A stretch of 62,854 bases of DNA, filler included, from Dugesia japonica (Eukaryota), in assembly GCA_001938525.1 (NCBI GenBank). It is 6 parts of 6 records of this genome, joined end to end, with 100 filler letters (N's around TTAATTAATTAA, not from the genome) between each part and the next. Parts side by side here need not be neighbours in the genome. Positions count along the whole stretch, not along the records: positions 11,741 to 20,275 come from MQRL01590040.1; 5 more parts are not named here. One strand, given 5' to 3'. Under the pieces are notes generated by a model. That model was not told where the DNA came from, ran no database searches, and worked only from the letters and a program-made list of their open reading frames with translations. This document shows positions 5,040 to 61,449 of this stretch, in pieces; positions within the stretch are counted from its first letter, which is position 1; the number at the start of each line of letters is the position of its first letter. The translations under genes were made by a program, and so were the position numbers.

Positions 5040-6290
5040 TGTCCATTATTACTGATGCAAGTGGCGACCACTGCCATTGACTTTTGTAATTTTCGTGATT
5101 ATTGTCCACTAAAAGATTATTGTTTAATTTGTGGAAAATCGGGACAAAATTTTATGAGTTGTAGACTGCTTACGAAATATCACCACAGAAACGATGTTAG
5201 ATGCCATGGATATGATTTGTGATGAATCGGATGAAGTAGGATATAATTTTAACTATTTAAACAAGAAGGACTTCGTTGTTCATTTTTCGTATGTGGAGTC
5301 AAGACAGAAGGAACAACTCGAAATTAAATAGTAGATGACAAGATGTATGTGAAGAACGATGTAAGAATTAAGTAGCGTGGTTAAAGTAAACAGAATAGGT
5401 GTGGAAATATTATTGGACACATGAGAATGGATATGAATGCTTGGAAAAGATGTGGTTGGTTTCCTATGAAAGATTCAGAGATAACATTGATTGGAGTATT
5501 TTTGAAGGAAGCTTTTAAATACTTTTGCGTCGAAAAAGGGAAAATTGAGTACCATAATATGAACAAAACTGTCAATATGGTGGTTGTACAAAGTAAACAC
5601 CCAGAGTTTATTGAGGAATGGACATGTTCAAAGCTTAAATATCTAATCAAAGATGATTGTATTAATTAAGTCAGATAATGTAATGGTTGATATTTTTTGA
5701 CAGGAGTCATTTAAAAGTCAAATGATGACACCTTAAAAACATTGTTATCGCGTTTTGTCTCACTATTTATGGCGCATACGTTTGACCGGGGTTAAATACT
5801 CTTAGTTAAACATCCATTCACAACAACGGCAATACTATTTTACAGAAGACAAGGCGGCAACCGATGCATCTAGAAGGCAAGATTGTCGAATTAATTGAAA
5901 AAAATGTCAAAATCAGCATCATAAAAGAATGCAGTAGCTCATGAAATTCGTCTATGCTGATTGTTAACATAAAGAATGAAGCTTTTCGTATATGTCAGGG
6001 TTTCAGATTATTGAATGAATCAACTTATAAATTTTCGTTTTCTATTCCAGATTCACAAATGTTATTCGATCATCTTAGTGAGTCTAACATATTCTCAACA
6101 CTAGATTATTATTATCAAGCGTATTAATAAGTCAAACTAGAGAAGGGGGATAAAATTAATATCGATTTTTTCTAGAAAAAAAGCCACTACTGTTATATTT
6201 GCATGCCATTCGGCCTATCAACCCTCCAGCTACGTTTCAAAGATTTATGTATACAATTCTGTTGGATATTCTTTTGAAAGGCGTTATAGA
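5040..6290 (+). mobile_element. Degraded Ty3/Gypsy gag-pol remnant (zinc knuckle, reverse transcriptase)
   Basis: CLICGKSGQNFMSC knuckle (~5120). RT pieces IIKECSSS-NSS, FRICQGFRLLN, IFSTLD, MPFGLSTPPATFQRFM (~5920-6250), all disrupted. Confidence 0.75.
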
Positions 6291-6382
6291 AATGTACTAA
6301 ATAGTTGCGTTCTTTTCTTGGAATGATATACTATTACAGGGAATTATTTTATTACCACTTAACGTATAGGGTGATTATCATA

Positions 6383-8540
6383 TCATTTAGAATAATGAGC
6401 TATAAATGTACGATCTTTAAAATCCAAATTTATAAAACATTTACAGAAAATGTCTGTAAGAGAAATTGAGTTTTTTATAGTAATCTGATTTATTAAAGTA
6501 CATTTAGAAAATATATTATTAACATAAAGTTCATCTAATTTCCAATTCATTTTTTGTCTAATTTTCTCCTTAACTGCCACATCGATCTTTAATTTAAAAG
6601 TTGTTACTATATTTAGCTGTAATTTATAAAATAATTTTCTTAATGAATCTTATGCTATTGCGTAATTCAAAAAATATATATAAGCATTGCTAATTTTAAA
6701 TTTACCACCATTAATTTTGATATGGCATTTATGAGTATTAAATGGTGGCGTTAAAAATTCATGACAAATTGGCCAAATATTTTGGCCGAAACTGTGTTTA
6801 TATTGTTTTCAATATTCTTTACCAGTCATTGAATTTTTCTAATTTTGTTCTTGACAAAAACATTCTTTTAGGGCTTGTTTGAAGCCTACTTTGTTCATAG
6901 TTTTCAAATATTTAGCCATTGTCTTTTTAGAGTTTGGTCGTTTGTAACTTTTCTATTGTTATATGTTATACAAAAAGATCTTTTATTTTTGTTTATAGGA
7001 AAATCGAAATTATTTATTTTATCAATACTTTACCGAGTTAAAGCAATTCTGATATGTTTCGATAATTTACTTGAACATGTACCATGGTTTTCAAAATCTA
7101 TTAGATTAATTTTTTCTGTAGTTTCAATATCGGATTGTTTTTATTTAAAATCATTACATGGTTTTTTTTGTGAATCACTTTCAAAAATATCATTATTACA
7201 TGCCTCATTAGTATTTTCTTCAAGTTTGTCATCAGCACTATTAATATCTGTATCTTCAACTTCCATATTGCAACTGTGAGTTCCTACATCTACATTACTA
7301 CTGTGAGGGAATGCAGTATTAGACACGTTAACGACATATTTTAGCATACTTTTCCTTTGTTTTTCTCCAGTAATACACGCTTTATTTTTGTTCTTAAGTT
7401 TTTAACTTCCACATAAATATTTTCTTCTTCGATCTCGATCTCTTCCCATTTTGCCAACTTAAATGTATACAATATATAAATATAGACAAATCTGCTATTT
7501 ATACCAAATGACTGAGTAATTATTTACCTATTTACCAATAATAAGAATTATAATATCTATTATATTATAAACACAAACACTAGAAATTAATTAATTTTAT
7601 ACAAATTTAGCAAGTTCAATTTAAATACAAAAAATTTAAATACAGGATACCAACAAATATGGTAGAGTTCTCCTAATGTATTGCAAAAAATACAAAGTTG
7701 GAATATTCCTGGGTTTCTCCATTATTTTTAAAAACAAAGCCAACTGCAACTATAAATTTGAACTTCCACCAATAAGGAGCCACTTATTTTTTCTAATTTA
7801 TATTAACAAAATTAATAATGTATACATTTTGTAAAGTTTAAAACAGTATTTAAAAACTTTTAAAGAAATTTTTTGAATTCAAGGAAATTTTAATAAATTG
7901 GGTAAATTTAAAATTTTTTCTTGTATTTAATAATAATAATATATAAACTTTCTAAAGTGCGGTGCCAAAAAACGTTTTGTGCGGCGTTTCTAAAACTTTG
8001 AAACAAAGTTTTGTAATATTTGTTTAGATGATTTTATTTTCTTTACTTATTTTTTTCTACAGCTGATTGTAAAATGTGATTTAGTTGGTCAAAGAATTCA
8101 TTTACTATATTTTCTCTTCTTCCTGTGTAAAAATAACCATTAGGACTTAGTGAAAGTTCTGTGGGATAAGCTGTTATTTTTACTGTTAAATTGGGGTTGT
8201 TATTTTTTATGTCATATAATATAAATTCTAAACAAGTTTTAATATTTAGCTCTGTCATAATATACGGTGAAATTCTATATGTATGTACGATGTCTTTATA
8301 TTGTCGATAATAATGCGATCCCATGTGGGTGATTCGATTAAAGTCATATATTATTAATTCACTAAATAGATCATCATTAAAATAATGTTCCTCAAATAGT
8401 AACGTGTTTACAATGGAACTACACTCATTGTAAAAAGAATTTGGACTCGACATTGTATTTTTTAAAATTAAATTAAAATTTACAATACTACCGAAATATG
8501 TAAAATATGAAATCTGCAAAAGTATGACAATATTTTGCAT
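6383..8540 (-). other. Unidentified element remnant: an intact ~136-aa ORF (8043-8453) plus a degraded long frame with a C2H2-like motif
   Basis: ORF from MSSPNSFYNEC has no recognisable family. The minus strand 7450-6383 has a basic start (MGRDRDRRRK), an acidic linker and ICHEFLTPPFNTHKCHIK (~6770-6715). Confidence 0.3.
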
Positions 8541-9708
8541 AAAATTACAGAATGAAAATTAATAAACTGTTCTCATACAATTTTTATATGTTAATTATTG
8601 GTAAAATATTAATAATATGTATAAATTTACCGTATTTATCCGAGTGCAAAATCGACACACATGATGAACCCCGGCTTGGACCGCGATCGCTTGAAAATGA
8701 AAAACCGCTAAAACTTTATATTTATCGATATATAAAATGATAAAAAATCCCATTCTGTAAAAGGTCGTTCGTTATACTTTAGACCAGTAAATTTCCATTG
8801 TCTGAGTATGATTTATAAAAGAATATTTGAAAATCGGAGTATAAAAGATAAAAATATTTAAAAAACAATTTCATAGAAAACTTAACTATAAACTATTAAA
8901 ATAAATTATGTTGGTAGGTAGATAATAATGCACTTCCTAAACACCGTTTCTCCTCGGCGCACACATGTTTCCAATGATTTGATTGGTCGGAATTCAGTGT
9001 TACAATTATGTAATTGTAGCAGTATTCCTGCAATTTNNNNNNNNNNNNNNNNNNNNNNNNNNNNNNNNNNNNNNNNNNNNNNNNNNNNNNNNNNNNNNNN
9101 NNNNNNNNNNNNNNNNNNNNNNNNNNTGTATGTGTTATCTAAGAATTTTGACTGATGAAACGTAATTTTAATGTGATGAATCATAATGTTATGTGTTGTC
9201 TTATAAATTTAACATGTATGGCTTTGGTTAGGAATTTAATAAGATGTATTTTAATTTTAACTTATTGACTATTAATTTCATGAGTTGAGTTAGAACCTCA
9301 TGTGATTGGATGCAATTTTAGTGTGATAGACTATAGTATTTTACGTTTTGGCTTATAATTGTGTGTGATAGAAAGTTATTGATGCATAATAGANTATAAT
9401 TTTAATCTATCTTATTGAAATTCTAATGTGTTGAGCTTAAATGTGAAACATATTGACTTANAAATTCTGTGTTCACGTANAATTGAGTCTGATGGATTAT
9501 AATTTTATGTGATAGAAAATAATTTTTAAATGATGGAATACATTTTTAGTTTAATTAATGATAATTTTTAATGACTACTATATTATTTTTCAAAACGTTA
9601 ATTGACTTCTAGTAAATCTTTGAAAGTTCATTTCGACCAATATGTATGTTTGGAACATTATTAAGTACTTTTATGTAATTTTAAAAACTCTTATTAAAAT
9701 ATTTTAGA

Positions 9709-10143
9709 TTTGTACTCGAGCTATTTTAACAGACATATTCAACTATTAAAAATATCAGACGTGATTAGATATTTTATTTTGTGTAAATTTGGAAGTATTT
9801 ACATGGATATGGATACAAAATGTCAAAAACCTTTTGACATTGTTATGATTAATAGTTTGTGCATTTTGAGTCAAGACGTCAATGAACAATCTCGGATATT
9901 GTGGAACGTACCTTATTTAGCAATGAACAGTTTAATGGCTTCCACATCAAATCATGATTTTTTCAAATATGCCTTCGGAAAATCGACATAAGCAGATTGA
10001 TTATGGATATTGGGACAAACTGGACCTATTTTTTTTACCAAATTATTTAAAGCTTATCAGGAATTATTGTCAAGCAATCCTCATACATTACTACCAGTTT
10101 CTTTAGCCGATCCATATTTGTTGTCCATTTGTTTATGCATTTA
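9709..10143 (+). pseudogene. GT32 (Gly_transf_sug, DXD) glycosyltransferase exon with in-frame stops
   Basis: SDVIRYFILCKFGSIYMDMD, NSLMAS..HDFF, then in the same frame after TAA (9989) and TGA (9998): ILGQTGPIFFTK (TGP motif). Preceded by a ttttag acceptor (9703-9708). Confidence 0.8.
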
Positions 10144-10821
10144 GGATACGATTTTGCAAAGGCTCGTATTAAAGAATTTGACAATTCTTGCTTTGCGTTA
10201 CAAAATGTTTCTATAATTTTGTTTTAAAAGGAATTTAGTGGAAATTTAAATCACTATTAGAGACAAACATTTTCACTAATAACTATTAAAAATGCTATAA
10301 ATTTAAATGAAATTATTAATTATAATAATTATACTACAAAATTTATTTATACTATTACTAATACTACTATTTATAATAATAAAAATATAAAGTATTATTA
10401 TTAAGGGTTGGGCATACGTACACTACATTGAGAATATTTTCATTTGCAGACAACATTCATTTTACTAGAACAATTGGAATCACAAAAAAATAAGTACAAT
10501 AAAATTCTACATAACAAGATTAAAAATATTACTCAACAATATTTTAAATTTTAATAATTTACTGGCAAAAATAAATTTACAAAATATTATTTACTAAAAA
10601 ATTATTAATTAATAACTACAAAGCTTGTGTATTGCTTGTTACCAATTATAATTTAATTTCTAAAATAATAAAAACAAAATTCACAACTAGTTTTTTAAAA
10701 ATCTGCTATACATAATATTCAAACAAACGTTTCTTTAATTTTAAATAAATAAATCAGATTTAATTAATTACATACTTATAAACTTGAAAAGTACTTAAAC
10801 ATTCCAAAATCAGACATTTCA

Positions 10822-11230
10822 TCATATTCCCTCTGTCAAGAATCTTTTAGGTTTTTTGACATTCCTTGTGAGTATTGTCCTGTTATGACCGACTAACAAA
10901 TATTGCATATCATGAACCTTATCTACAATATTTAATGGGTTTTCATAAATGTTTTTCGCTTTATCTCTTGCTTCAACTTCAACCAAGACCTTTTCGCCCA
11001 CCGTGAATTTCCTTGTCAGAAACATATTTGAGTACTGTGTCCCGATCTTTCTTGTTCTTGGGCTATCATCTTTATTGACTGATCTTCCACTTAAAATATA
11101 TTTTTGCCGAACTCACTTGTGTCGTTTTTTGTAAAGTCCCATTTATTGCAAACTCTGCCTAATTTCTCTTGCATTGTAGCATTGATGAAGTCTCACACCG
11201 TCCAGAACTGTCACTCAATCTGTCCAATAG
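10822..11230 (-). mobile_element. Gypsy integrase C-terminal fragment
   Basis: RKFTVGEKVLVE...YENP..IVDKVH..QYLL.....LTRNVKK.KRF resembles the GPY/F-SH3 tail of Gypsy integrase. Confidence 0.6.
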
Positions 11231-11239
11231 TTTTATCCT

Positions 11240-11640
11240 GGTAAGGACTCACCAAATGTGTCTCACTAAATGTTTCTGGAAATGCTTCTCATCTGGAGGT
11301 AAAACCGACTCAAAATCCGCATATATAACAAAAGGTGGTGTTAAAGTTTTCAAATAATCCTTAAAAATCAAGTTCTTTTCTGTTGGCATCGTATACATGG
11401 TGGTACCTGTTTGGATTTTTTGCAAATTGGTTCATGTTTCTCATATGCTACTTCATTTTTGAACCCGTTGAGACAGTTAGGACACCAAGTTGATTGAATG
11501 TGAACACCTTGTCCTTTATTATCCCTGTTCATTAGACGATTTAGATTTAGTACTGCGGTGCAATGCAATTTGTTGTTATTTTCCAGTAATAACAGATATA
11601 TTTTCTCACCATCTATCACTTTTGAACGATGTATTATATC
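11240..11640 (-). pseudogene. pPolB N-terminal fragment, same lineage as 817-1140
   Basis: IYLLLLENNNKLHCTAVLNLNRLMN..IQSTWCPNCLN versus IYLLLLKNGENYHYTAVLNRNRLLN..IQSIWCPNCLN, followed by FKDYLKTLTPPFVIYADFES. Confidence 0.85.
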
Positions 11641-11740
11641 NNNNNNNNNNNNNNNNNNNNNNNNNNNNNNNNNNNNNNNNNNNNTTAATTAATTAANNNN
11701 NNNNNNNNNNNNNNNNNNNNNNNNNNNNNNNNNNNNNNNN
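11641..11740. other. Artificial 100-bp contig spacer N44-TTAATTAATTAA-N44 (also 20276-20375, 32808-32907, 41403-41502, 51880-51979)
   Basis: The same 12-mer, with stop codons in all six frames, is centred in N runs of identical length five times. Confidence 0.95.
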
Positions 11741-11816
11741 ATGTTTTTACTTATAATACTTTATATAATTTATATAATTATTATATAATTTCATTTCATA
11801 TAATTTCAATTGTGCT

Positions 11817-11966
11817 ATCTCAATAAAAAATTTCAATAAAATAATTTTAAGAGCGATGTTGATGTGCGAAGCTTTGTTGATAAGGGCATTAAATCCTAAA
11901 ACTAATGTTCAGTTGACGGATTCAACATCGCTCTTAAAATTATTTTATTGAAATTTTTTGTTGAGA
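11817..11966 (+). mobile_element. Penelope-like element 3' end (GIY-YIG endonuclease C-terminus) flanked by a ~46-bp inverted repeat
   Basis: Reads MLMCEALLIRALNPKTNVQLTDSTSLLKLFY*, matching the PLE EAL.I...P.LN.Q...LKLF terminus. Arms 11817-11862 and 11921-11966 are reverse complements. Confidence 0.65.
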
Positions 11967-13584
11967 AATTGAGAAATAGAAATTTTATAAATATTTTGAT
12001 TAATTATTTTGTTTTTCTAATGAAGATTTGATCTATTTAAAAAGAAAAAATAATGGAATTGCGAATGTAATTGTATTTTAAATGTCAAAGCCGTTGGGAA
12101 GGTCTTCAAAAGCTCAAATAAAAGGTTACAATAAATTTAAACCAATAGAAAATAACTATTTAAAAATATCAAATTACACTACTGAAATTAAAAACTGAAA
12201 TAAAAGAACATCTTACATAGAACCGAAAATTTTTAAATAATTCATAGATAAAACTATCTATGAACAAAGAATATATAGTTTTATTATGCATCTACATATA
12301 ATCTGCATACTATATATATAATAAAAAAAAATTAATAGAAATCTGGAGCGGAGCTCATGGCAGGAGTAAAACCGGAGCTCCACTCTCCAATATTTTTTAT
12401 TAGCATTTCATTCTTTCATGCATAACATCTCTTTTTATATTACTATTATATAATTTTTTTCACATATTGTTTTACATAAATGGATGTATATACTTTATTT
12501 TTAAATTTTTCATGTTTAAAATTTTTGAATTTTAATTCTTTTAATAATAAATAAAGTATATATAAATAAACTTTATTATAACAGATATACACATATAAAT
12601 AAAATTAAGAAATTAAATAAATAAAGATAAAAAATAGTGTGATTAAAGAATTCGGTTCGCAAAGCGGAGTTGCAGTGGAACAACTCTGCTATACATAATT
12701 TTAGTTTGTTCAATTTAAATTCATTAATCATACCCGATAATATAATTTTATAGAACAATAAATGTAATATGTGGCAAATCTTATTTAGCTGACAATTAAT
12801 AAAAATAATAACATACGGAGATTTTTTAGTGGTATTATAGTATTAAAAGTTACAAGAGTATATTAAAACGTCTTTTTGAATACAATGAATCATAGAAATT
12901 AATCTGTTAATGCTATAAGATATAAAACTAGTTATTTATTACAATTATAAATACTCCTTAAAATCTAATTAGGAAAATTGACGTTTGCTTTTAAGTTAGA
13001 ACTATATCCAATTTTTAATAATAGTGAGTCAAATTTCAATTGTAATCAGCAATTTTCATAATCAATCATCTCAGAAATTTTTGAACATTAAAAATCTCTG
13101 CGAACACGCAAATTTCAATCAAACTTTTCTAATTAAATATTAACATAATAAATTTTATTTTATTTATAATAAAATTTAGTACAAAATAAGTAATTCCCAT
13201 CGTTTGAATGATAAAATTTACTAAAATTAATTTCGAAGAAATTAAATTTAAAATTTCCAAATTACGGACAAATTTATAACATAAATTTTGGATATTTTGT
13301 CACGCTTTACTTTGTAAAGTGTAATCAAACGTTTCTTTAATTTTATATTACAGCAATTTACATTTAAAAAAATAAAATTAGATGTAGAATAAAATAATAA
13401 ATTTAATATTTAGATTAATTTTTTTGGTACTTCAATTTTAATTCACCGCAAAAAAAATATTATACAATTGGTCATCTTCACAAAAGCATTAATATTTTAA
13501 TTCACCGCAATCAAATGAAAGTTAAAGATAACCAATTAAACAAATATTTATTATTATAAAAATTCAAGTACATATCGACTTCTT

Positions 13585-14400
13585 TAAACGTCGACCACTA
13601 TAGTGGTGGACAGAATCGAACAATACCGTTCTAAAATAGTGTTGAAAACATTCAAACCATTGACTTTAACGAACCGACACCACATAAACTCACGTGTAAA
13701 AATCGAGCATGTCTTTGTGCTCTATTGTACCGCTTGTTTCTCTCTTGCAGATTTCCAAGTACGTTCAATGCGTTAAGTTCGGATTCACAAACTTAACCGA
13801 CTGTTTGATGAGTCGATCCAGGAATTGTGCCCATTCCATTGTATGGTCTTCATTGATCTGTTGTGTACTTGAATAATCAGCATAAGTTCATGATCTAAGT
13901 GCTGATCTATCTTGCACACAAAACATGAAACACTCACTAGACTCGTGACAAATTCCGCCAAAAACCCATTGTGTGGTAAAACTCATCCGATGTGATTCTT
14001 ACGGCGCGTAAACAGACTCTCGTCGATTTTAACTGTTGTCATAGGTCCTCCAATAATAACAGGATTTTGTAATAGTGTATTAGCACATACCACCCGTAGG
14101 TAATTGTTCCAATCAATAACTGTTTGCTGTGAAATGTCCAATTCAGATTCGCAAAATTTAATGCTTATCATCTCTTTCAAGCAGCAGTATATGAAAAGAA
14201 TGATCTGTCTGTAAGTGAGACGTGATCCCTCTAGCCAAGTGTCCCGCCATACAGGGATATCGTGCCGGCACTAAGTGTGGTGGCATCTCCAACGATAAAA
14301 TAATTATATGGTTGTTAGCACAACTTGTACAAGCATGTATAATACCGTATTGCTGTAGAAACAAGACGTTATTCGCTTTATCATAAACTAATGCTGAAAT
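13585..14400 (-). mobile_element. Merlin (IS1016/IS1595-like) DNA transposase pseudogene
   Basis: TVIDWNNYLR..C, IIGGPMTTVKIDESLFTRRKNH.G, VFGGICHES.ECFMF.V.DRSA, SAK.RNKR, EFMWCR. Confidence 0.85.
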
Positions 14401-15495
14401 TGTCAAAAGATACATGGCGTCTAGAGAAGCATGTTTTACTAATAAACCGGATATAACAGCATAGATAATCAATAAAATCAAACTTAATAATCAACTAAAA
14501 AAAATGTGGTGAAATAAAATTAAAGTACCATTTTTATATGTAACCTTCAAAATATTGATTTATATATATATATTCATTAAGTTGGCAAGAGAGTAATGTC
14601 ATTTTCGCAAGCATTATAAAGAAATTAGCTCTTAATTCAGAAATTATCAACATCAAAAATCTTGTATTGTCAGTTTAAACTACATGTTTGCTAACTCTTG
14701 AATATTATTACAGATATTATCGATCTATTCCGTTTAAAACCAGTACAGTAAACTGAGTTTAAAAGCAACACTCTTCAAGCGAAAATACACGCTCATAGAG
14801 AATTCTTTTCGTTACAGTTTTGTGTAATTTGAAAATTTCACCTATAAAATACTCTGCTTAAAGAGAACAATCACCGGTCCCACTGATGTTCTCTTTAAAC
14901 AGAATTCACTAAATTTTCACTTAAAGATCGAACTCTATGACGAAAATCATGAGTAACGCCACGTTGACTACCAAAAATTTGTGTACCGTTTTTAAATGGT
15001 CAGATGCAATACAGGCCAAAAAAGTTCAACAATGGGTTTGGACATTTCTTTGAGGAGAAATTTGAATTTAATAGATGATACAAGTTTCCGCACGTCCGGT
15101 AGGTGTTGTTAATAATGTTTTTCAGGCCATGCTTTCAAAACTTCCGTTAGCAACAGAAAACGCAATCGAAAATTATTTTTGATATTAACAAGTCTTTGCG
15201 GTTTAGAAATTTGATAAATAAATTTTAGTTACATTACTTTCTTACTTGCCAATCTAATAAATAATGTTTAACAATTTTAAAATTAACAAAAATAACAAAG
15301 ATAATTTAATTATGTAATGTTGATTAAAAAAATAACTGCAATTGCTCATTGTAATCGAAAAATTTAAATTATGTAATATCATGTTGATTCCCAAAAAGTA
15401 CTAAAAATCAAATTCAATGTATAAACATTCGCTACATTAATAAAATGACAAATTTCAAAATTTAAATCATGACAGAAAATTGAAATTAATTTTAC

Positions 15496-16026
15496 CTTCA
15501 ATGGTTGAGGACAAGATAGTGAAGTATTTGGTGCATTTCCTTTGTCAGTTTGATTATCACGTATACAAAGATTATTTTCAGGATACAAATCACAAGACAT
15601 TGATGGTGGCCACTAAAAATGAATTTTATAATTATATCCATAAAATAATGTAGTTACCTTAAAATAAAATTTTTTCAAAATAGGTTCACACGCTTTTTTA
15701 ATTTGTAAGCATAAGGAACGACAAGGAGGTAATGCTTTCTTCATTATAGTACAAACGGGGAAATACAAAGAACAAAGAAAAAGTTGTAAAGAAGAATGAC
15801 ATTTAATACGCATTAAGGGTATATACTCATTGATTTCTATAGCTGCTTCATCTTGTGTTGAATGATGCATATGATTTGGAAATATGGTCATTTGGTACAA
15901 TAATCCTTGACACGCTGGTACTTTAATTTTCTCGCAATTTGGTTGATTATATGGATCATTAACAGCTCGAATATTATTAATAAATACAAAAACAAATAAA
16001 ACTATTAAAATATATTTAATTAACAT
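15496..16026 (-). CDS. Frizzled-family gene (signal peptide plus cysteine-rich domain, Fz1/2/7-like); exons 16026-15658 and 15612-15496
   Basis: Signal peptide, CEKIKVPAC..TIFPN..FLCSLYFPVCT..ALPPCRSLC. Removing the 45-bp GT-AG intron (15657-15613) restores FK|WPPSMSCDLYPENNLC. Next donor AAG|GTAAAA at 15495. Confidence 0.92.
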
Positions 16027-16649
16027 ATTAATCTGTAATTATGTTGTTTGTTATATTAATTATTAGAATAAATAAACAAATTGTGTAAAATAATAAATTA
16101 AATGTGATTTAAAGGATGTAAAAACAATTAAAGGTCCAACAAACTTTGCTTGAGTTTTAAAGTAGTATCTTTTAGTTTTAACTTAAATATTTATATACAC
16201 TTAACAAAAATAATTTAATTATAAAATTTATTTTTATTTCAAAACATTAAAAATACTCAATTTATTATCTTCAAAATTTTAAGTTCTAAAGCAATCTGAT
16301 TCAACAGGTATGAATTGTCATACCAATTGATTTAATGGGGAAATAAAAGACAAAAATTTTCAATATTGTTGATATTTATCAGGAATAATTTAGACTTGAC
16401 TGCTAAAACTATTTTTAATTTGTAAATGTTTAATATTGTATTAGTTTTTCCTTTCTAGTGCTTGCTTAACGTTTCAATACGGACTTACAAAATTGCCTTA
16501 AATACATTGAAATTCAAAATTGTAATTTATATTCAGATAAAATGTCGTATACATTTAATTTAAGAGGTTTGAAATTGATAAAATGGCAAATCCTAACTGA
16601 GAGCTATAATTTTTAATGAATGTACTAGTTTTTCAACTATGATTTGATT

Positions 16650-18600
16650 TTTTCTGTTTTTTTGAATGTTTTGTCTCGATTGTTAGTTGGCTTTGTAAAT
16701 GTATTACATTTTGTTGTCGATTCTAATTCTAGTCATCAGCTTTCCATATTTGATAAATAACTACCATCTTTATTGAGGCTCATTTATGATTTCTTCTAAC
16801 AGATCTATGGTTTGAACCCTATAAAAAGAGGTCAGTAAAGCTAGAATTCAGTCTGAGTTGTTATTTGACAAAAATATATATATCATCAATTCGCATATCC
16901 AATTGTGATCAATTTGTTAATGCTAGTGAGTGTAAAACCTAACTTTAATAAACAAATCACTGGCTCCTATTAAATTATTCGGTGTGTAAGTTTATTATTC
17001 CTAGACATTGCGTCATCATTTAAATTATATTCTCCTTGTTTACAATTACAATTACTGCGATAGTAATTGTTGGACGCAGGCATTAATTTTTTTCCGATTT
17101 CATTAAAATAAAAGCTTCGATCAAATTTTCTTTGCTTTTTAATATTTTGAATTTTTTATTTAGCCTTCATCAGGAACTAACTTTCCAGACGAAGATTAAG
17201 TCGAAAATTCGAAATATTATTGAAAACAAAAAAATGGATCAAAGCGTTTATTTTAATGATATTCTTCTTCTCTGTATTCCATAGCCTAAATTGTGGAGTA
17301 ATCTGTTTTTTCGTATAAATCATAAAAATTATAACTTTTGATCAATTCAAAGTTTAAATCTTTTACCGTATAAATAGTGTTTGTAATGTTTCGTTAAATA
17401 ATATTTTGCTAGAAGCTTGTTTCTAGTTATACAAAAACTTAATTCATTCTTACTCATTTCTTTTGATCCATAATCTAAAACCCGTTCAATACCTTGCTCA
17501 TCTAACTGTGATAATACTCCACCAATTTTGTCAATGCTAGCATTTGATTCTAATATAAATTCTTTAAATAAATCTGGATAAATAGGTATAGAAGCTTTTA
17601 TTAATTCTCGTTTTATAACTTCAAAATTTTGTTTTCATTATTTGACCAAATTAATTAATTTTTATTGTTTCCACATAAACCTTTTACTATCCTCGAGTTT
17701 TTTAAATAATCTTTGATAAATTTTTTGTAAAAATTTGTACGTCCTAAAAATTCACAAAGTTTTTTCAAACACTTAGGTTCAAACTCTTTAATTGGTTTTA
17801 TCTTTTCTGGATCTGTTTTTGAACCATCTTTAGAAATGATATGACCCAAAAACTTAATCAGAAAATAATTTCAAACCTGAATTTTTTAATTGATTAAAAC
17901 ATTTTCCAATCTTTTGTATGCTTTTTCTCGATTTTAGAAAGTATCAATATATCACCAAAATAAATAATTGTTTCCTTCTAATTTAATGGTCGTAACCCTT
18001 TTTTCATTAATTTTTGAAATGTTGCTGGTGCTGAAGCTATTCTAAATGGCATTTGGATGAGGCAAAATTGACCAAACTTTGAAGAAAATGCCGTTTTGTA
18101 TTTTGAACTATCCTCTAATTTTATCTGATAATATGCATTACCCAAATCTATCGTTGTTAAATATTTTGATCCATTCAAAATGTCAAGCATTTCTCTTATA
18201 TTTATTATTGGAAACAATCGTCTCTCAGTTAAAGTTTTCAATAATCTAAAATCCAATCCAATTCTATCGTCATTTTTCTCTTTCATCCAAACACAAACTA
18301 TTGAACTATTCCACTCAGAATCACATTGTTTAATCATACCCTTTTCTTCCATTTTTAAAATAGACTAATTAAGTTTATCTTCTAAATGAATAGGTTGTCG
18401 CCTAGGATTTACTACAACTCGATCACCGTGGGTAACAATTTCATGTTTTAATAGTGTTGTCTTACCTACATCCCATTTATCTTGAATAAAACTTTTTGAA
18501 AATCGTTCAATTATATCATTTATATTTTTATTTCCTTCATTTTAAAAGTTCATTGTTTTTATTTCCCATATTTTTTTATCAATATAATTTAGCATTTTAA
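16650..18600 (-). mobile_element. Degraded Ty3/Gypsy pol (RT, RNase H, integrase traces)
   Basis: DVGKTTLLKHEI, SEWNSSIVCV, LDFRLL, TIDLGNAYYQI, KTAF, MPF.IASAPATFQ, FLGHIISKDG, FLG.TNFYKKFI, PILFYPDL.KEFILESNAS. Confidence 0.9.
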
Positions 18601-18609
18601 ATTTTTGTT

Positions 18610-20200
18610 GGGGTTCCACTTGAGTTGAGTGATGAAAACTTGAGGCTGGGTAAAAACAGCCCTCAGGGAGCCCCTTCAAGAATTTACCTAAAGTCACTTA
18701 TTTAGGTTATCAGTGTAGAGCGGTTGACCTCTTACTTTATGAGAGGTGCACACCCGTACACCTTTAATTATGGTTCCGCTATTTCCCTTATCTTACACAT
18801 AAAATTTAAACCAAAGGTACTCGAAAACATATATTAAGATGGCATTTATATCTCGTCTAATACGCCAGGGTCTAACCACTGGTCTGGATCGGTTATCAAA
18901 AAATTGAAGGCAGCGGCGTCGTCATCATCGTTCCATTGTTCCCAAGTGGGGTGGTTGAGTTGGCGAGAGATATCGGATATATATTGCTTGAGGAAGTCAA
19001 TTTTCCTCTACAGCAACAATTTGTTTTCGTCTTCTAACGCTTTGGTCTGCCTTGCCAGGTCATTTTGTTTTTTCACAATCTGATCAAGTTTCTTGATCAG
19101 ACGATCTCGTTGGTTCAAATGTTTGATCAGGGCTTGGTCGGTTTTCCGCTTTAGATGACGTTCTAATAATAGGCGGCTCAATATGCGATGGCATCTGCGG
19201 ATACTATTGGGTAAGGGGATGTGAGGCACTAAAATAAATTAAATTAATATATAGGCAACTTAGCAATAATTATCAAACGCTACAACAATAACTGATTTCA
19301 CAAGAACGATTAAATGATACATTTATTTATGAAAACGAGTGGGGTCATGTCCGAGGGGTTTGAGTGCTTTTCTCAATCATCAAAGGCTCGAGAGTATCCT
19401 TTCCCTGAGGTGTAAGACATCGTCAACCAGTTTATTCTCTCGGTCATGGCTGGACCGGATGATTTCCGCAAAAGACTCGACCTGTTTCTTCCATACTCGC
19501 TCCTGCAAGTGGGAGGCCTCGGCTTCCTTTTTAAAGGCGATACACTTTTTCTTGTACCGAAATACCTTACTATTCGTGGCGGCTATTTCTGCCTCCCATC
19601 GTCATTTTGCAAGACGGTAGAGTTCCCAAGTCATTTCTTGGTCCTCGCTGGTGTCTCTCAATTCTTATTTGGGAGCTGAAGGACGGATCAAAGAGGAATG
19701 CCCTAAAATATTATTATTACAATTATTGAAGCACACAATATTTAAAAATGCATCCTCATATTAATATAGAACGAAATTTTCTTTTAATGAATTAACGCAG
19801 AAATGAAACAGATTATCAGTAAGAAAAGACACTTATTTATTTATAATTCTAAGTACAAACAAAGTGATCATTGCGAATCAGTAATGGTGTCAGTATTAGG
19901 AGCGGCGTTCTCGACATCGTTATCACCGGAGGGTTCTCTCACGCTCCAGAGTAAGTTGGAGATGAAAGCCTGTACTACTAGGGGTGGGGCCGGAGATTGA
20001 TAATTAAACGACGTAGTATGGTTACGCGCTGGTGCGTTCCATTGTTGGAAGTTTATTCTTGTCGCCACTGTCGCCTCGATGGGTGGTAAATTTGACCTAT
20101 CCACCAAAATACCTGCATCTCGGTTATGCGAGTTATAGTGGCGTCTAAAAATTACCCGACGAGTCCTCCGATCTATTACCTGTTCCCAAACGGATTCCAT
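18610..20200 (-). other. GC-rich cassette A: ORF 20200-19868, acceptor-led ORFs 19702-19380 and 19228-~18848, and a hairpin cluster at 18610-18761
   Basis: Three GC-rich blocks separated by AT-rich spacers. The second and third begin right after ttttag and encode coiled-coil-like peptides. The cassette abuts the Gypsy RT remnant on the same strand. Confidence 0.6.
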
Positions 20201-20469
20201 GTTTATTTAAAAGGTAATATTAATTATTACTAAAAAAAATTCATATATGATAAAGTTATAATGAGAAAATTATAGNNNNNNNNNNNNNNNNNNNNNNNNN
20301 NNNNNNNNNNNNNNNNNNNTTAATTAATTAANNNNNNNNNNNNNNNNNNNNNNNNNNNNNNNNNNNNNNNNNNNNAGAATTAATTGATTTAGTAAATTCA
20401 AGTAAATGCAAATCAATAAAACTAAATGGTCAAAACTATTAGATTGGTAGATAGGTTTAAGAAGAAATA

Positions 20470-20740
20470 AAAAATAAAATTAAAGAAGGGGTAATAATTC
20501 TATTATTAGCATTAACACCAGGTATAAATGCTGGTTTAGCATCAACAGCTGGAATAGCTTCAACTGTAAGTAATTCGAGAGATGCAATTAAAAAACAAAA
20601 CGAAACTGAATTAGTAAAATTACAGAAAAAGGAAAAATTAATTCAAATAGAAAAATTGGAAAAAGAAAGTTCATATAAAACTAGTTCAGGTTTAGATTTA
20701 TATCTAAAACCTTATCAAGAAAGTGCAATACATAAATATT
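20470..20740 (+). pseudogene. Polinton/adintovirus pX-like Gly/Ala-rich membrane-active protein C-terminus
   Basis: GVIILLLALTPGINAGLASTAGIASTVSNS, then a charged helix, then GLDLYLKPY. This matches the G.LYLKPY-ending core protein I recognise from animal Polintons. Confidence 0.6.
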
Positions 20741-20859
20741 TAAAAAATAGTTTGCCAAATTCAGAATTAAAGATGATTACTAAAAACTTTAAAAATGGAG
20801 TAAAAGTTGATGGTTTGTATTTAAAACATGTTAATTGTTCATGATAATCCTAAATAAAA

Positions 20860-21600
20860 TGTGTAATGAAAAAATATTGGCAAGAATAAAACTTTTGAAA
20901 GATTTAATTAAAGCTCAAGATGATTTTAATAATTTATTTACTAAAGGAGTAATTGAATCAAAAACTTTACAAGATACTTTAACTTTGGAACAACAATCAA
21001 CTATTAAAGCTATTGAAAAATTTAGTAAAAAACCAGATTTGAAACTTGATTCACAACTTAAAAGTCTTTTTGAAAATAGAATACCATTTTTTCAAGTACT
21101 ATTTTAAATACTGAAATTTTAAAATCTGCAACAATTAGACATATATTTGATACTGAAGTTAATTTTTATAAAAGCTTTCAAAGTATAATTTATCCTAATC
21201 TTAAAAGATCACTAACAGTAATATATTTATTCGAAGAAAATGGAAAAGAATACCTTTTAAATAACCAAGAACTAATTCCTTTTTCTGAAGAAGTAATGGA
21301 AGTAATGGTCCAGAAGCAAAAGATATTTATTTAAATAAATTTAATATTGCAGTTTATCATAGACCTGATTATTATAAATTTTTAACTGAAAAAAAACTTT
21401 AAAAGTACTTAAAAAGTTCTTTAAAAAGAAATCCAAAGGCAAAGTTTTCAAAAATCCAATCTAAAATGATCCAATAACTTTATTTGAAAGATTAACATTA
21501 TTAATTTCAGCAGTAAAAGCTGGTCATAACACAAAGAAATTAAATCCGTTTGTCAAGAAGTATTATACAAAGAATTAATTACCAAAGAAAAATATAATGT
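20860..21600 (+). pseudogene. Conserved Polinton/adintovirus core ORF of unknown function
   Basis: C-terminal NDPITLFERLTLLISAVKAGHN (~21465-21530) matches the DP..L..RL.LL....AG.N motif; frameshifted. Confidence 0.65.
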
Positions 21601-21649
21601 TTATGAAAATAAATATTTTTGTTAAATAAAATTTCTCATTAATTTGTAG

Positions 21650-22305
21650 TTGTTTGACAAGAATCTAATTTAGAAGTTGATTTAAAATTTTCAATAGATT
21701 TAGATTCTGACTATGAAATGGGATTATTATGTTTTAATTGTTATAATATAATTTTTAATGTTACTAGTAAAAATAATACTTTTATATTGAAACAAGAACA
21801 AAGACGTAAGGAGTCAGGTGCTTATAAAATTAAAGAAATTTCTCGTAAATTAAAAGATCATGGAATAGAAGTTACACCAGATCTTTCAACAGCAAAATGT
21901 AATTTAATTACAAAACATACAATCAAATTTGATGATAATTTCTTTTTTCATACAATCCTGGGTTTTTCACTTATAGAATACTTACCAGGATAGTATTATT
22001 CTGAAAATAAGATTGATATTTTAAAGATTAATATGATAAATATAACTTATAATTTAGTTAAAGGTAATTATATTAATTCCAACGAACATGCAACTCCATC
22101 AAATTTATTATATACTTTACCTATAAATTCTGTAGGTTTTGGTTATAAAATTATAGAAAGACTTTATCCTCCAATTTATTCAAGATTAAACTTTAGGTAT
22201 ATTGATTCTTTAAAATTTAGTGCTGTAGATGAAAATAATAATCCAATAGATTTTAATGGGCAAACTATTTCTTTATTAGTTCATATAAGAAAATGTCCTA
22301 CGTAA
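21650..22305 (+). pseudogene. Minor capsid protein (penton, single jelly-roll) of a Polinton/adintovirus-like element
   Basis: IDLDSDYEMGLL..YNIIFNVTSKNNTF, GAY.I.EI, ILGF, INITYNLVKGNYIN, GYKIIER..PIY, DENNNPIDFNGQTISLLVHIRK. One in-frame TAG at 21991. Confidence 0.85.
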
Positions 22306-22313
22306 AGTCGTAT

Positions 22314-22710
22314 ATGATTTCTAAAAACCTTTGGAATAAATACTAAAACTAATTTTGATTTATATTCTATTACAGATTTTTTAAATTTAGAAGTAGAAAT
22401 ATTAATGAAAGATGAAGTCAAAAATAAAAAAGGAGAACCATGGTTCCCCAAAAATAATAAGTATATTTTTAATTATCAAAATACAAATTAAAAAGAAAGT
22501 CATTGGGTTGCTTTTTATCATGGTTATTATTTTGATTCTTATGGATTAAATCCTTTCAAAAAAATTGAAAAACATGTAAATAAATATAACAAATTTCAAG
22601 TTCAACCTTTTGAAATTAGTATTTGTGGAATATTATATTTATATTTTTTATGCTCTCTTCAACATCCCAAAGGGCCCCAAACATTTGATAAAATTATTAA
22701 TGAATTATAT
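22314..22710 (+). pseudogene. Adenain (adenovirus-type/Ulp1-like cysteine maturation protease)
   Basis: TNFDL, IFNYQ, SHWVAF, YYFDSYG..P, QVQ, SICG (catalytic H, D, Q, C). In-frame TAA at ~22489. Confidence 0.85.
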
Positions 22711-22994
22711 ATTACCTTACTACAGTCACAACTTTTTTAGATTTTTAATTTTTGAATTTGTATACTGCGGTAAACACTTTTTTCATTTTTGATTTTTAAC
22801 TTCTGATTTTAGAAATTAATTGTACAATTTTTTCATTTTAGATATTTTCAATTTTAATTTTAGAAAAAGCGAACCACAGTTCGCATTTTTATAATAAATT
22901 ACATTAAAACTTCTTTCAGTCATTAGCGCTAGTAAACTACAATTTAATTGTCCTGTTAATTTATCCAACATTAAATGCCACTGCTTACAATAAA

Positions 22995-25830
22995 ACTTAT
23001 TTCCATGAGGCCAAGTTCTTATTCCATTACATTCAATTATTCTTTCTATAATTATGGTGTTGTTGGTATTTTGTATTTAGAATGTATTTTTTTTATTTTC
23101 ATTCCTAAAGATTTATACAAATCCAGTGTTGATCCTAGAATAATGTAATTGCTTTTATCAAATTGATTCAAAGTTAATTTAATATTTTCTTACTCAATTT
23201 TTTATGAAATGATAATTGATATGGACTTAACATTTCATTTGTAATATTAATTTTATCTGGAGCTAAAGGAAAGTATTTGTCTATTCATGAATTTCTGGTC
23301 GATATTCTAAATCCACTTCATAAATATAATTCATTACATCTATTGATCAAGTATAAATTAAATCCTGGCATTCAAAATTTTCACCTGTTGGTAATGGCTT
23401 AGTCATACAAGATGCATATAATAAATATTTTATAAATGTTTCTTCTTTCCAATCTATTGGAGCCACTTTATTTTTTATAAATGAAAATAATATATCACCT
23501 ACTTGTGCTTTATTTAATTTTCTAGTTTTTCCAAATCTAGGATTTGATTTTTTATTATTTGAAAAATCTTGTCTCACACCACATACACCTGAAAACTCAC
23601 CTCTAATACCTTTTTCCATTTTCAAAGAAATATCATAAGTTTCTTTTTTTGCATATTTTAATTTTACTTTAGAATAATTCATACCTGTTACCCAAATATA
23701 TCCTGGAGCAGAATATGTATAACTAGGATCTAATTGAAATATATTATTTAAACTTTTATCTCTAAAGTTTTCAATAAAATTTGCTAGAATAATTACATCT
23801 AATTCCATATAATGTAATATGTATTCTAATAAGTTTTCAAAACATTGTAAAATTCATTATAATCTTGTTCTGTTATTTTTTGTTCTTTAAGAGTATTGAA
23901 AAAATCTTGTTGAGTTGGAATTTGATTACTTTTAAATAAATTAATCACCTTATTTCCATTTTGTCCTTTTACATATTCATAAGGAAATGATATTTTCTTT
24001 GGAACAAGATTAAAAGATCTTAAATGATTATAGTTTGATGATTGTAATAATAATTTACCCATTGTATCAATAGATGTAAAAAAACATAATCTTGCTGAAT
24101 CTAGAAATCTAATATTTTCATATTGAAATGAAATGATAAACTTTATCTGTATGAGGAATTATTTTTTAACTTTACTTGGATATTTTGCTAATAATTCTTT
24201 TAAAAATAAATGATCATCATAACCTGATGCATTGTGAAAATAAAACTGAATAAATAAATACTTTATAGATTTATCTTGCAAATTACACTTTGAATGAGCA
24301 TAACCTCTAAATTCTCTATGAAAATGATCATGATCAATTACTAGATTTTCAGTTATTAACTTTTCACAACATCTACGTTTTAGGTGAGCTTGCTCACTTT
24401 CATAAATACCTAAATACTTTGTTAATAATTTATTTTCTTTTATATCAATTAATTTATTATTAATCGCTTTTAAAAATTCAAAAAACTGATCAAGAAGGTT
24501 TTTTTCATGAAATTCGTTATATTCTTTTTGCATTAAAGGTTGATATTTACTTACTACATAAATTCCAAGTGATAAAAGGTTTTTTTTAGTATTAATATTA
24601 GTCCAACTTTCAAAATCATCATAAACTACAAAAGGCATTTTCATTTTTTTAATAATAATTTTGAAAAGAATAATATTCATGTTTTGGAAATACAATATTA
24701 CTAATTTCATGATTGATACATTCATTTTAATGTTTTGTTAATAAATTTTCACTATGATAACAATTCATACATCTAATACATAAATAATTTTTATTTCTGT
24801 TTGTTGAAAATGTTCTTGCACATCTCTACACAAAATATAATGATTTTTATAAACTAATAAATTACATTTATTTTCCTCAAGTTTAGGATTTGTTTCATAA
24901 TGAGAAATATATAGAGGTTCGATTTTTGTAGAGTTGGTTACTTCAAATAAATTTATTTTCCAATTATTCAATTTTTTAACATCATCAATATTTACAGGAA
25001 ATTTAATTTCATTTGTTTTAAATTCATTTAAATAAGAAATATATTTTTAAACTCTAGTTGGATGATCAAGTCTATATTTATGATCCAAAATTGAATAGAG
25101 AAAACATTTTTTATCTTTATTCGGAATATTAATTACACCTGGTTTTGAAAATGGTAGTTTTCGATATGAAGAACCAGNTTTAGATTGATATTTAGAAAAA
25201 TTCGATTTTATAATCAACAATGTAATTTAAATTACATCCAGATTCACTTCGATCTTCATCTTCAATATATCTTTGTAATTCATTTATAATATCATTTACA
25301 CCATTATTAATTTCTTCTTTAGTTATAAATTGTCTATTCTTTGAATATGAATTATAAATTCTTTCAACATATTTACAATTTACTTCTAATTATAATTACA
25401 ATTTACACTCATACAAACATTAATCTTTCTACCATAATTAAAATACTTGGTAATAATTTTAGTTATTTCGGTTTGAAATTCATTAATCATTTTTTTCGAG
25501 ATTTTCAACGTTTTTGGTTAATTCAACATTACTATCTTTAAAATATTCAATTTCATCATCTTTGGACATTTTAAAGATGTCACGAGTTTCTGGATTATAA
25601 TCAATTGCATATTTTCCATGAAGTTGATCAAATAATAATTTGTTAACCATTTCTTTATGTGTCTTTGAATTGTAGTGAGCTTTTGTATGATTTGGATACA
25701 AAAACGTTTTCTTACAAATTTTACAATATAAAGGTACTTTGTGTGGATTTCCTCAAATTGTTGAATTCAAATGTTCTTGTAATTCAACTTCCGAACGAAA
25801 TGATATAAAACATTTTGAACATCTAAATCT
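22995..25830 (-). pseudogene. pPolB with N-terminal C2H2 zinc fingers and an endonuclease-VII-like insert; palm core deleted
   Basis: CSKC..H and CKIC..H..SKTH fingers, GSSYRKLPF, VINI.NKDKKCFLYSIL, PFVVYDDFES, DHDH...FRGYAHSKCNL, FHNASGYDDH, FLDS, FPYEY, LDVIILANFIENFR, EKGIRG, YEVDLEY, FPLAP, then the C-terminal GIRTWPHG. Confidence 0.92.
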
Positions 25831-25859: not shown

Positions 25860-28159
25860 TAACATGATATGTTAATCCAGCTTATATAAAAAGTTTAGAA
25901 GAAGAAGGATTTTTTGAACTCCAATCAATTCCAGAGTTTTAATCTAATAAATCGAATAATGAATGGCTAAATACAAAGTTTTCTGAATTATATCAAATCA
26001 AGGTAACTCCAATAATTAATACTTTATCCTTGAAGCAGGAAGATATGACTCTTAGACAGTATCTAACTGCTATCAGAGTTGCTGGAATTTGCAAAATTCC
26101 AGATTATGCTGAATTTAATAGAGAAAAGACTCTTATCAATATTTTTGAAAGGGGTTAATAATCGTTTGGCAGCCAGAGCCACGGAAATTATGAAACCAAA
26201 AACTCTGGAAGAAGCTTTCAATTTTATGAAAAAGGAAAATAAAACTTGACATAATGATAAGTTGCAATTTATTAGCAATGATGTTAATACAGAAAAATGG
26301 CAAGAAATGGAAATATTAAAACGAAAATTTATTGAGCTTGAAAATTGTATAAAGTATTTGGAAAGAAACCATTAAACAGATTCCTCAAAGTATGCAGTTC
26401 AAAAGTTCAAACAAGAATTGAAATGTTATAATTTTAACGGGAAAGATCATATTGCTCAAAATTGTAACAAACCATTACTATGCAGGAACTGTTACAAATC
26501 CGGACATATATCTCGATTTTGTCAAGCAGCAAAAAGATCTAATATTATGAAAGAAGCTTTTCGAAGACTAGAAGAAGCAAATGACAATTTATATATTGAA
26601 TATGATGAAGCCAGTTGTGATTATGAAAAGGAATCTGAAGATAGAAATGAATTTTTTAAAATTACTTCGAAAGAACGGTAAACTAAAAGAAATATCAACT
26701 ACTCAGATGATATTATTAAGTTGGATGAATATATTCGAGGTTCAAGACACAAATTTCCAATTCACAAATGACAAAGAACAATGATATCAGATACAAGAAG
26801 CAAACCAGCAGCAAACAAACCAATAATCAAAGGCAAAGTAAAACAAGAAGAAAAGAGAATCTTTATAGATTTTGGAGCAGAGTCTAGTATCATGGATTTC
26901 AAAATAGGAGAGTTAGCAAAAACCTAAAGAGCACTGTATCCGAGGGTCCAGATAATAGAGCGAGAAGTGGGCTCAAATGTGTACAGTAAGAGTTATATTA
27001 GAAAATATAGTAAATATTTTGGGAAAAGTGGAAGTAATTGTTTTAACGAGTTTAGATAGCGATATATTTTGTTTGAAGGAAGTTTTATTTAGTCCTTATA
27101 AAGATAAGTTAGCAAATTTTTAGCTGCAAATAGTGTCTTATGTTAGAGAAACTGGTGAAATCCCAGTAAGAATAATTAACTTAAAAAATAAAGATATTAC
27201 AATGTTTAGAAATACGAGATTAGGCTGTATTGAGATTGTAGATTATACAGAAAATAATATTGGAAATATTAATGGAATGTATCAGATACCGGGATGTGAC
27301 ATATCCAATGCATAAGGGATACGATTATGAACAGAGGATTCCGAGGACAACTCATTCTGATGACAGAACACAATTTAAATCAGAAATAATGAAGGAATTG
27401 CGTATTAAATTACAAATAAAGCAATCATTTTTAGCACCATATTTTCATCAGGGTAATGGGCTTATAGAACGCGTATTTAGAACAGCCAAAGACAAATTAT
27501 ATGCATCTTGTAAGTCGCATAACCAATCGTGGGTTAAAGCAATTCCTTTTGTTGAACTAAGTATGAGATCATCAAATAACAAAGAATTGGAGGTCTTACC
27601 TTATGAAATGTCTTTTAAAAAATAGATAAATTTGAAACCAGACATTTTGACTGCCAATGTAGAAATTGACAAACTGGATTTTCAGAAAAACATTGAACAA
27701 CAAAGGGAGAGAATTACAGAAAAGAGAAAACAGATTCCAAAAGAAAATAAAGCAGAAAATAAGAACCCTGCGTTAAAGATTGGTGGTTTGGGTAATGGTA
27801 AAAACAGAAGAGAGAGAGTGATGGTAAGCAAGTTTCTCAGTAATTATAATTTAGAATTAGATTATGGAATGAAAGTAATTCATCAAAATCTTAATTAAGT
27901 AAAACGATTCCATGGAGAATTCAGAGATAAAAAAGAAACGATAAAAGAAACAATCATTAGTGCCACAGCAGTGATGTAAAGCGTGTTTTTATAGACAACT
28001 CAAAACAATGCATAAGGTGATATCCAACGAGAGAGAGGAAGCCAAATCCCAAGTATGTGATGAACTCTTAAAACAAAGTGGATTGTGTGAATAATATTTA
28101 TTAATTTGTGTAGATTTTAAATAAATTTTAGTAAACTCAAGTTCCCTTATTTAATTACA
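25860..28159 (+). mobile_element. Internally deleted Gypsy element nested in the Polinton (gag with two zinc knuckles, protease, integrase, possible PPT and short LTR 28086-28159)
   Basis: CYNFNGKDHIAQNC and CRNCYKSGHISRFC; IFIDFGAESSIM; IPRTTHSD..TQFKS, APYFHQGNGLIER, LPYEM. Purine-rich tract then TG...CA. RT and RNase H are absent. Confidence 0.85.
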
Positions 28160-32516: not shown

Positions 32517-32907
32517 TCTAAAAAACCATCAATGGTTATGTCCAACAATTATTCTCGCTATAATTGCAATTGTAAAGCAAAATTATTAATATTTAATATT
32601 AATAAATAATATAAAATTTAATATTTGTAAAGAAAATGAGATGTCAAATAGAAAAAATATGGTCATTTCCGAAGCATATTATTATTTAAATTCAACAAAA
32701 GTCGGAAATCTTTAGAAGCATTTTTGTTGTTTATGGAAAGAATAGAATTGTCAAAATTACAGCACAAAATTTGTTTCCCGTCTCAAAAAGGGTCATTTTA
32801 ATAAAAANNNNNNNNNNNNNNNNNNNNNNNNNNNNNNNNNNNNNNNNNNNNTTAATTAATTAANNNNNNNNNNNNNNNNNNNNNNNNNNNNNNNNNNNNN
32901 NNNNNNN

Positions 32908-61110: not shown

Positions 61111-61449
61111 AAGTTCCCTAACGATTTCCATAAGAGAATCTTTATTCGTCATGAAGTAACGTGGTTTCAATTCATTTAATTTATGATTTAATTATTATGC
61201 AATTTATTATACGATTATTTGCATATTCAAATGTCGAAAACTAAAGGAAAGAAAAATTGAGTGCATAATTATAATAACTGTATTCAACCTCCTTGAAAAA
61301 AATAAAATTGATACTGTGACAAAATTAACAAAATAATTATACACCTTTTCCGATTAAAAACACCAAAATAGAAAAAAAACTAAAAAATAAAGTTAAGGTA
61401 TTAAGTGGCACAAAATACCTTTTATTATTAACTAAAGTAAATCATAATA

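Follow-up and report, generated by a model that had tools for sequence, protein, structure and literature searches.

Does a row of short coding blocks at the edge of a planarian contig represent the accessory genes of a mobile element, each read from its own spliced RNA, and if so, of which element? The blocks (cassette A) lie on the minus strand of a 62,854-nt stretch of Dugesia japonica DNA, hereafter the window, which is ∼25% GC overall and has many gaps. The earlier note had proposed that one leader is spliced alternatively to several terminal exons inside an LTR retrotransposon, and that the neighbouring Gypsy pol remnant belongs to that same element. The features that bear on the question are:

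20276 to 20375, no strand: linker N44-TTAATTAATTAA-N44, which cuts the element; the sequence beyond it need not be adjacent
20201 to 20275, minus strand: AT-rich lead-in, 12% GC, with a third acceptor-like T-run and AG at 20231-20230
19868 to 20200, minus strand: block 1, an intact ATG-led ORF of 110 codons with a homologue (P0005); stop at 19870-19868
19703 to 19867, minus strand: spacer 1, 21% GC, with AATAAA at 19841 and an acceptor-like ttttAG at 19704-19703
19323 to 19702, minus strand: block 2, acceptor-led, phase 1, rich in E, K, Q and R, a probable coiled coil, interrupted here by stop codons
19229 to 19327, minus strand: spacer 2, 21% GC, with AATAAA at 19327 and an acceptor-like ttttAG at 19230-19229
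18846 to 19228, minus strand: block 3, acceptor-led, phase 1, a probable coiled coil with an acidic W/D tail
18761 to 18850, minus strand: lead-in to the end unit, with TATAAA at 18850 and ATTAAA at 18768
18606 to 18760, minus strand: end unit of 155 bp and element boundary, with imperfect inverted ends TGT..GGG / CCCC..ACA
17300 to 18605, minus strand: decayed AT-rich Gypsy pol (RT and RNase H; Pfam RVT_1 3e-8, RT_RNaseH_2 4.7e-19)
59629 to 61165, minus strand: cassette B, more decayed but of similar build, with three GC-rich blocks and an end unit

The contig that carries cassette A stops 75 nt upstream of the block 1 ATG, at the linker, and the 5′ part of the element is missing. Five identical N44-TTAATTAATTAA-N44 linkers (11641-11740, 20276-20375, 32808-32907, 41403-41502 and 51880-51979) are an assembly device, and the contigs that flank them may not be true neighbours. 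Elsewhere in the window, on the minus strand, are a transposase-like fragment at 13800-14300 (Merlin/ISXO2 type by eye, no Pfam match), an intronless 760-aa ORF at 37184-39466 that has several hydrophobic segments, looks like prominin by eye and had no Pfam match, and a PWWP-domain exon at 44674-45396 (E 1.4e-13). A decayed Polinton/Maverick-like element occupies 20461-25400, with a weak DNA_pol_B_2 match (E 0.003), pieces of a protein-primed polymerase and, by eye, penton-like and adenovirus-type protease-like ORFs.

Cassette A proved to be a real, non-random arrangement within a repeated element. The earlier description, in which the second and third of three GC-rich blocks lack an ATG, start directly after a ttttag and each end in their own stop, was confirmed in part. 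Three blocks of 48-49% GC are indeed set apart by spacers of 21% GC, the first is opened by an ATG (20200-19868), and the other two begin right after ttttAG, with maximum-likelihood GC change points at 19704/19703 and 19230/19229, i.e., on both AGs. GC content is 20-22% in the 60 nt ahead of each ttttAG and 50-52% after it. The rough chance of both GC steps falling on AGs is 6e-5, given that TTTYAG occurs 98 times in 64,100 AT-rich bases; only 3 of the 29 AT-to-GC steps in the window have a nearby acceptor-like motif, and two of these three are the AGs of cassette A. Both sites stand in phase 1 to the long frames of the blocks behind them, which is consistent with their use as acceptors. The third acceptor-like AG, at 20231-20230, lies 29 nt ahead of the block 1 ATG and is also in phase 1 to block 1, with a TAA between the two, two codons ahead of the ATG. 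The absence of an ATG held for block 3, which has none in frame, but not for block 2, which has one at 19634. Similarly, block 3 ends in its own stop (18848-18846) behind the acidic W/D-rich tail quoted earlier, whereas the end of block 2 is uncertain, because in-frame stops at 19667, 19604, 19382 and 19379 precede the stop at 19325.

The evidence for coding differs among the blocks. The frame of block 1 was stop-free in 33 of 2000 dinucleotide shuffles (0.0165); the corresponding fractions were 0.44 for block 2 and 0.10 for block 3, which has one internal stop at 19010; stop counts alone support block 1 but do not show blocks 2 and 3 to be coding. The heptad moment of the phase-1 frames was reached in 44 of 1000 shuffles for block 2 and in 6 of 1000 for block 3, and this periodicity supports these frames. 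Block 1 is conserved as a protein: a HMMER search of 1.84 billion proteins found one distant homologue, P0005, a 94-aa protein from a single 512-nt contig, with 36% identity over 94 columns (E 5.3e-5), a common start methionine and the NRDAGI motif in both. P0005 was also the sole find of the block 1 profile among 17 candidates. The other two of the three HMMER hits, P0004 and P0006, are tandem-repeat proteins and were dropped. Word-index protein searches gave no match for block 3, nor for block 1 at near lengths; the Atlas gave none for block 1 and only low-recognition coiled-coil matches for block 2; and Pfam, PHROGs and PDB returned only coiled-coil matches for the blocks, all below threshold. 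Prokaryote genomes and viral contigs gave no relative. Four of the five viral-contig scans were empty and the fifth gave a phage by chance match (L002); a metagenome hit, L001, was likewise a chance match, to a bacterial histidine kinase. A WW-like reading of the start of block 1 received no support from Pfam and was abandoned. The AlphaFold model of block 1 had a pLDDT of 47, and with Pfam, PHROGs, PDB, the Atlas, the profile search and AlphaFold together, no family, structure or function was found for this block.

The array closes in an LTR-like unit. Cassette A terminates in CCCCAACA, and TGTACGGG begins 155 bp upstream, so that the unit at 18760-18606 starts with TGT..GGG and finishes with CCC..ACA, i.e., it has the TG...CA form and short inverted repeats of an LTR. 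It probably represents either a short 3′ LTR or the terminal part of a long LTR. The whole window (62,854 bases) contains the pair TGT-N-GGG...CCC-N-ACA twice, once at the end of each cassette, although the pattern is post hoc and was drawn from both. In cassette B the end unit is 123 bp long (59751-59629, TGT..GGGG / CCCC..ACA). The 40 nt ahead of the units contain 29 (A) and 24 (B) purines and end in GG, without a pure run at the edge, and no classic polypurine tract was found directly ahead of the 155-bp unit. Beyond the termini, DNA alignments of the two ends were unconvincing.

Cassette B repeats the build of cassette A with some departures. Its block 1 is led by an ATG at 61152, its block 2 follows a ttattAG at 60915-60914 in phase 0 as read, and its block 3 follows a tttcTG at 60220-60219 in phase 1, with TG in place of AG. 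Among 27 pairs, the best protein match was between block 2 of A and block 3 of B (score 54, equalled in 7 of 3000 shuffles, ∼0.06 when corrected); it lies in the phase-1 frame and begins upstream of the ATG of A block 2. This likeness is only suggestive, since a scan of 1,620 chunks of the window against A block 2 found two overlapping K-rich chunks elsewhere that also score 54. Upstream of cassette B, the region 62000-61450 may hold further blocks. It had no match by Pfam, PDB, plasmid tblastn or local tblastn, and an integrase reading of it was dropped for lack of support from Pfam, PDB or tblastn. At 61947-61904, a 44-nt spacer with 7% GC runs up to an AG that precedes an ATG, and on the other side of the cassette, near 59450, there are a polypurine run and an LTR-like TGTTAGG start.

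The abundance and expression of the cassette were analyzed by aligning four sequencing runs to 15400-20275 at 85% likeness. This region includes an expressed frizzled gene at 15400-16038 on the minus strand (Fz domain, E 3e-26; 45-nt intron at 15657-15613). Summed DNA contig depth, which is not a copy number, was 1,830-12,226 over the cassette bins and 16-19 on the frizzled gene and its flank, a difference of ∼100-fold or more. With depth so far above that of the single-copy frizzled gene, and with variant contigs present, cassette A is a repeat. In the bin 19312-19474 the depth rose to 136,467; the core of block 2 (∼19426-19484) was covered roughly tenfold more deeply than its neighbours and had clusters of loose ends on both sides, which points to a more abundant related family that has this core in common. 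At single sites in blocks 1 and 2, 21-42 contigs differ from the window, other copies carry single-base indels in and near the blocks, and 26 contigs have another base behind the first AG, with the result that both sites read AG|TG. An MITE-like hairpin repeat with 80-nt arms, at 17030-17262, which interrupts the pol remnant, is very abundant (summed DNA depth of 96,000 in its bin) and collected many RNA reads.

The frizzled intron served as a control, and reads spliced across it numbered 5 and 13 in the two raw RNA runs. RNA depth in run X22 was 0 in the second-AG bin and 0.22 in the first-AG bin, and in run X21 it was 0, which makes the splice comparison empty rather than negative. At this acceptor-bin depth of 0 to 0.22, none of the 15 joints listed, of 73, used the AGs of the cassette, and with coverage nil at the acceptors no loose end among those listed bore a leader. 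Contigs of X9, guessed to be RNA, span blocks and spacers alike and are compatible with unspliced RNA or with DNA. No RNA run was among the 20 rows listed as having part of the stretch. This copy of cassette A is decayed and gave almost no signal in the two raw RNA runs. The near absence of RNA reads would be explained if the element behaves like planarian GLT-type transposons, which, in the accessible text of PMC8532177, are silent in controls and raised by smedwi-2 RNAi.

We read 18606-20275 as the terminal part of a mobile element present in many copies. It likely comprises the accessory genes at the 3′ side of a GLT-like LTR retroelement together with the LTR, and a separate spliced RNA is predicted for each block (probability ∼0.45). 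Accessory genes of retroelements are usually located just ahead of the terminal LTR. The interpretation of the earlier note survives in part: the multicopy state, the phase-1 acceptors, the conservation of block 1 and the LTR-like end speak for it, but the neighbouring pol does not fit as the parent. In the mechanism that we propose, the element would have inserted into an older Gypsy pol. Its missing 5′ part would supply a leader with a phase-1 donor at its end, and splicing would connect this leader to one or another of the acceptors. Blocks 2 and 3 would thereby be in frame and yield small coiled-coil proteins, block 1 would be translated from its own ATG, and the transcripts would terminate at the poly(A) signal that follows the block concerned or within the LTR. 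From the analogy of HIV Rev/Tat and of CERV in C. elegans Cer1, the products are guessed to regulate export or expression of the element RNA. Two points in cassette B run against this explanation, namely that one acceptor is in phase 0 and that another reads TG instead of AG. Nor did the sequence up to the linker show a 5′ LTR, a primer site, or gag or pol genes of the parent element.

The same type of element could be read as a small operon, in which a single precursor would be cleaved at every poly(A) signal and the acceptor that follows would receive a spliced leader by trans-splicing. Flatworms trans-splice, and in nematode operons the spacing from poly(A) signal to next acceptor is about that seen here, where the AATAAA sites after blocks 1 and 2 lie 138 and 98 nt ahead of the two AGs. 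Blocks 1 and 2 are not closed by a strong donor, an acceptor precedes the ATG of block 1 by 29 nt, and the second block of cassette B is in phase 0. That last phase is the one given by the flatworm leader, which ends in AUG, but blocks 2 and 3 of cassette A are in phase 1, block 3 offers no in-frame ATG, and the likeness between A block 2 and B block 3 begins before the ATG of the former. We therefore regard the operon as unlikely.

If instead the three blocks were consecutive exons of a single cis-spliced gene within the element, the spacers would be ordinary introns and the stops a result of decay. Spacers of ∼165 and ∼95 nt with 21% GC are indeed intron-like, blocks 2 and 3 are visibly decayed, the indels in other copies are of single bases, and donor-like GTs in phase 1 are found at 20112, 19926 and 19860. 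The first of these, CAG|GTATTT, lies inside block 1, but the conservation with P0005 continues beyond it and P0005 ends nearby, equally short, so that block 1 looks self-contained; its GC-rich part also ends at its stop (change point 19873). An AATAAA after each of blocks 1 and 2 is not expected within such a gene, and the donor-like GT at 19320 is in phase 2 to block 2 as read. A single gene is, on this evidence, improbable.

The blocks might also lie inside one giant LTR, as U3 ORFs in the manner of MMTV sag, and the promoter, R and U5 would then occupy the final 240 bp; this arrangement is compatible with the same splicing. It would account for TATAAA at 18850, ATTAAA at 18768 with a GT-rich run behind it, and the terminal CA, which stand in U3-R-U5 order, and for the lack of a good polypurine tract ahead of the 155-bp unit. 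Large size has precedent in the Burro elements, which exceed 30 kb with a 25-kb interior in the part of PMC6431247 at hand. Yet both cassettes show a TGT..GGG start 123-155 bp before the end, and cassette B has no TATAAA near its end unit, and we see only a small chance that the LTR is of this kind.

Non-LTR mobile DNA is a poor candidate. Serial co-oriented coiled-coil ORFs are reminiscent of a Penelope/Terminon-type multi-ORF retroelement, a Polinton part beyond the gap or an integrated DNA virus, and the decayed Polinton-like element at 20461-25400 is close at hand. This DNA is, however, 22-25% GC and on the far side of the gap, cassette B has no adjoining Polinton, and the viral contigs gave no relative. 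No hammerhead was detected by Rfam in either cassette; the core pattern was absent from A and gave one loose match inside block 3 of B. The folding of the 3′ end was no better than that of shuffles (z -1.2).

The junction at 18606 bears on how the cassette relates to the pol remnant. The two are adjacent and on the same strand, as the earlier note had stated, but the junction is the end of the element. GC content falls there from 0.47 to 0.15. By eye, the pol sequence opens within the protease-RT linker, immediately behind the end unit, and gag and protease were not seen. Its GC3 is 0.23, against 0.46-0.52 in the cassette blocks, although low GC3 alone is no proof of a separate origin. In addition, an X9 contig (record 14) from a related copy follows the window over 18611-18784 and then continues with 71 other letters, departing at 18611. 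An intact element cannot set an LTR-like end, without gag or protease, directly before its RT, and we infer a nested insertion in which the older Gypsy pol is the target of the cassette element and not its parent. The link drawn earlier between the two is probably wrong. The literal form of that proposal, one Burro-like Gypsy element comprising the cassette and the RT remnant at 18600, has adjacency, strand and high DNA depth on both sides of the junction in its favour, but is very improbable given the LTR-like end in between, a pol that lacks 5′ genes and starts mid-linker, the GC step with the diverging contig, and a Burro pol that is fused to gag in a 4,873-aa ORF in the available text of PMC6431247. 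Other decayed Gypsy pieces (RT, zinc knuckle, integrase, RNase H) are scattered at 5789-6247, 26376-27900, 56900-57900 and 33227-33379.

More broadly, and tentatively, a flatworm retroelement family may have evolved its own programme resembling that of complex retroviruses. Several small regulatory proteins would come from consecutive terminal exons, each provided with a poly(A) site, to which one leader is joined by splicing (or a spliced leader by trans-splicing). GLT and GLT2 would belong to this family, and the array would underlie their tissue-specific activity. Spliced accessory genes are known from a few invertebrate LTR elements, as a rule one each. If the proposal is true, alternative terminal exons in series, with poly(A) signals inside the array, would come nearer to regulation of the HIV/HTLV style, independently reached, and would give a structure to the GLT-type repeats that serve as markers in planarian piRNA work. 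No description of this build was found in the literature covered; Grohme 2018, the Repbase reports and the supplementary PDF of PMC8532177 were outside that scope and may contain one.

Several known systems resemble cassette A in part. In the HIV accessory genes, HTLV pX and foamy virus bel, small ORFs follow alternative acceptors and stand directly before the 3′ LTR. Cassette A resembles this layout, without sequence likeness, but the RNAs of complex retroviruses all end in the LTR, whereas cassette A has internal AATAAA signals. As far as the accessible part of PMC10309623 goes, the LTR retrotransposon Cer1 of C. elegans makes its accessory CERV from a spliced mRNA with host-type acceptors, much as proposed here. 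CERV is, however, one 517-aa product of five exons shared with the gag/pol frames and its splicing was shown, whereas cassette A, known from sequence, has three separate blocks, two of them with their own poly(A) signal (PMC10309623). Bdelloid LTR retrotransposons carry an extra ORF3 downstream of pol, in some cases coiled-coil and reported to be typically expressed from spliced messages, as is proposed for the blocks of cassette A, but there is one ORF3 per element and it is often env, GDSL or DEDDy (PMC5408684, in part), domains that the blocks do not have. Burro shares with the cassette element a likely common host group, accessory ORFs and thousands of copies. None of the domains listed for Burro in the text at hand (MATH, BIR, ankyrin, BCL2, env and dUTPase; PMC6431247) had a Pfam match in the blocks, of an element of which only the 3′ end is present, and cassette A showed no Burro feature and no sign of giant size. 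The accessible parts of PMC11410931 and PMC10954484 held nothing further on structure.

A further likeness is to GLT and GLT2. The available text of PMC8532177 does not describe their structure, and the comparison was made by eye. It concerns build only, since the primers do not match the window (one each for GLT2 and BURRO1, at 3 mismatches). On the reverse strand, the GLT and GLT2 probes (Table S1 of PMC8532177) have GC-rich open frames behind AT-rich spacers, as in cassette A, and the GLT2 probe appears to enter a coiled-coil-like frame through a TTTAG|TG start in phase 1, resembling the acceptor-led blocks described here.
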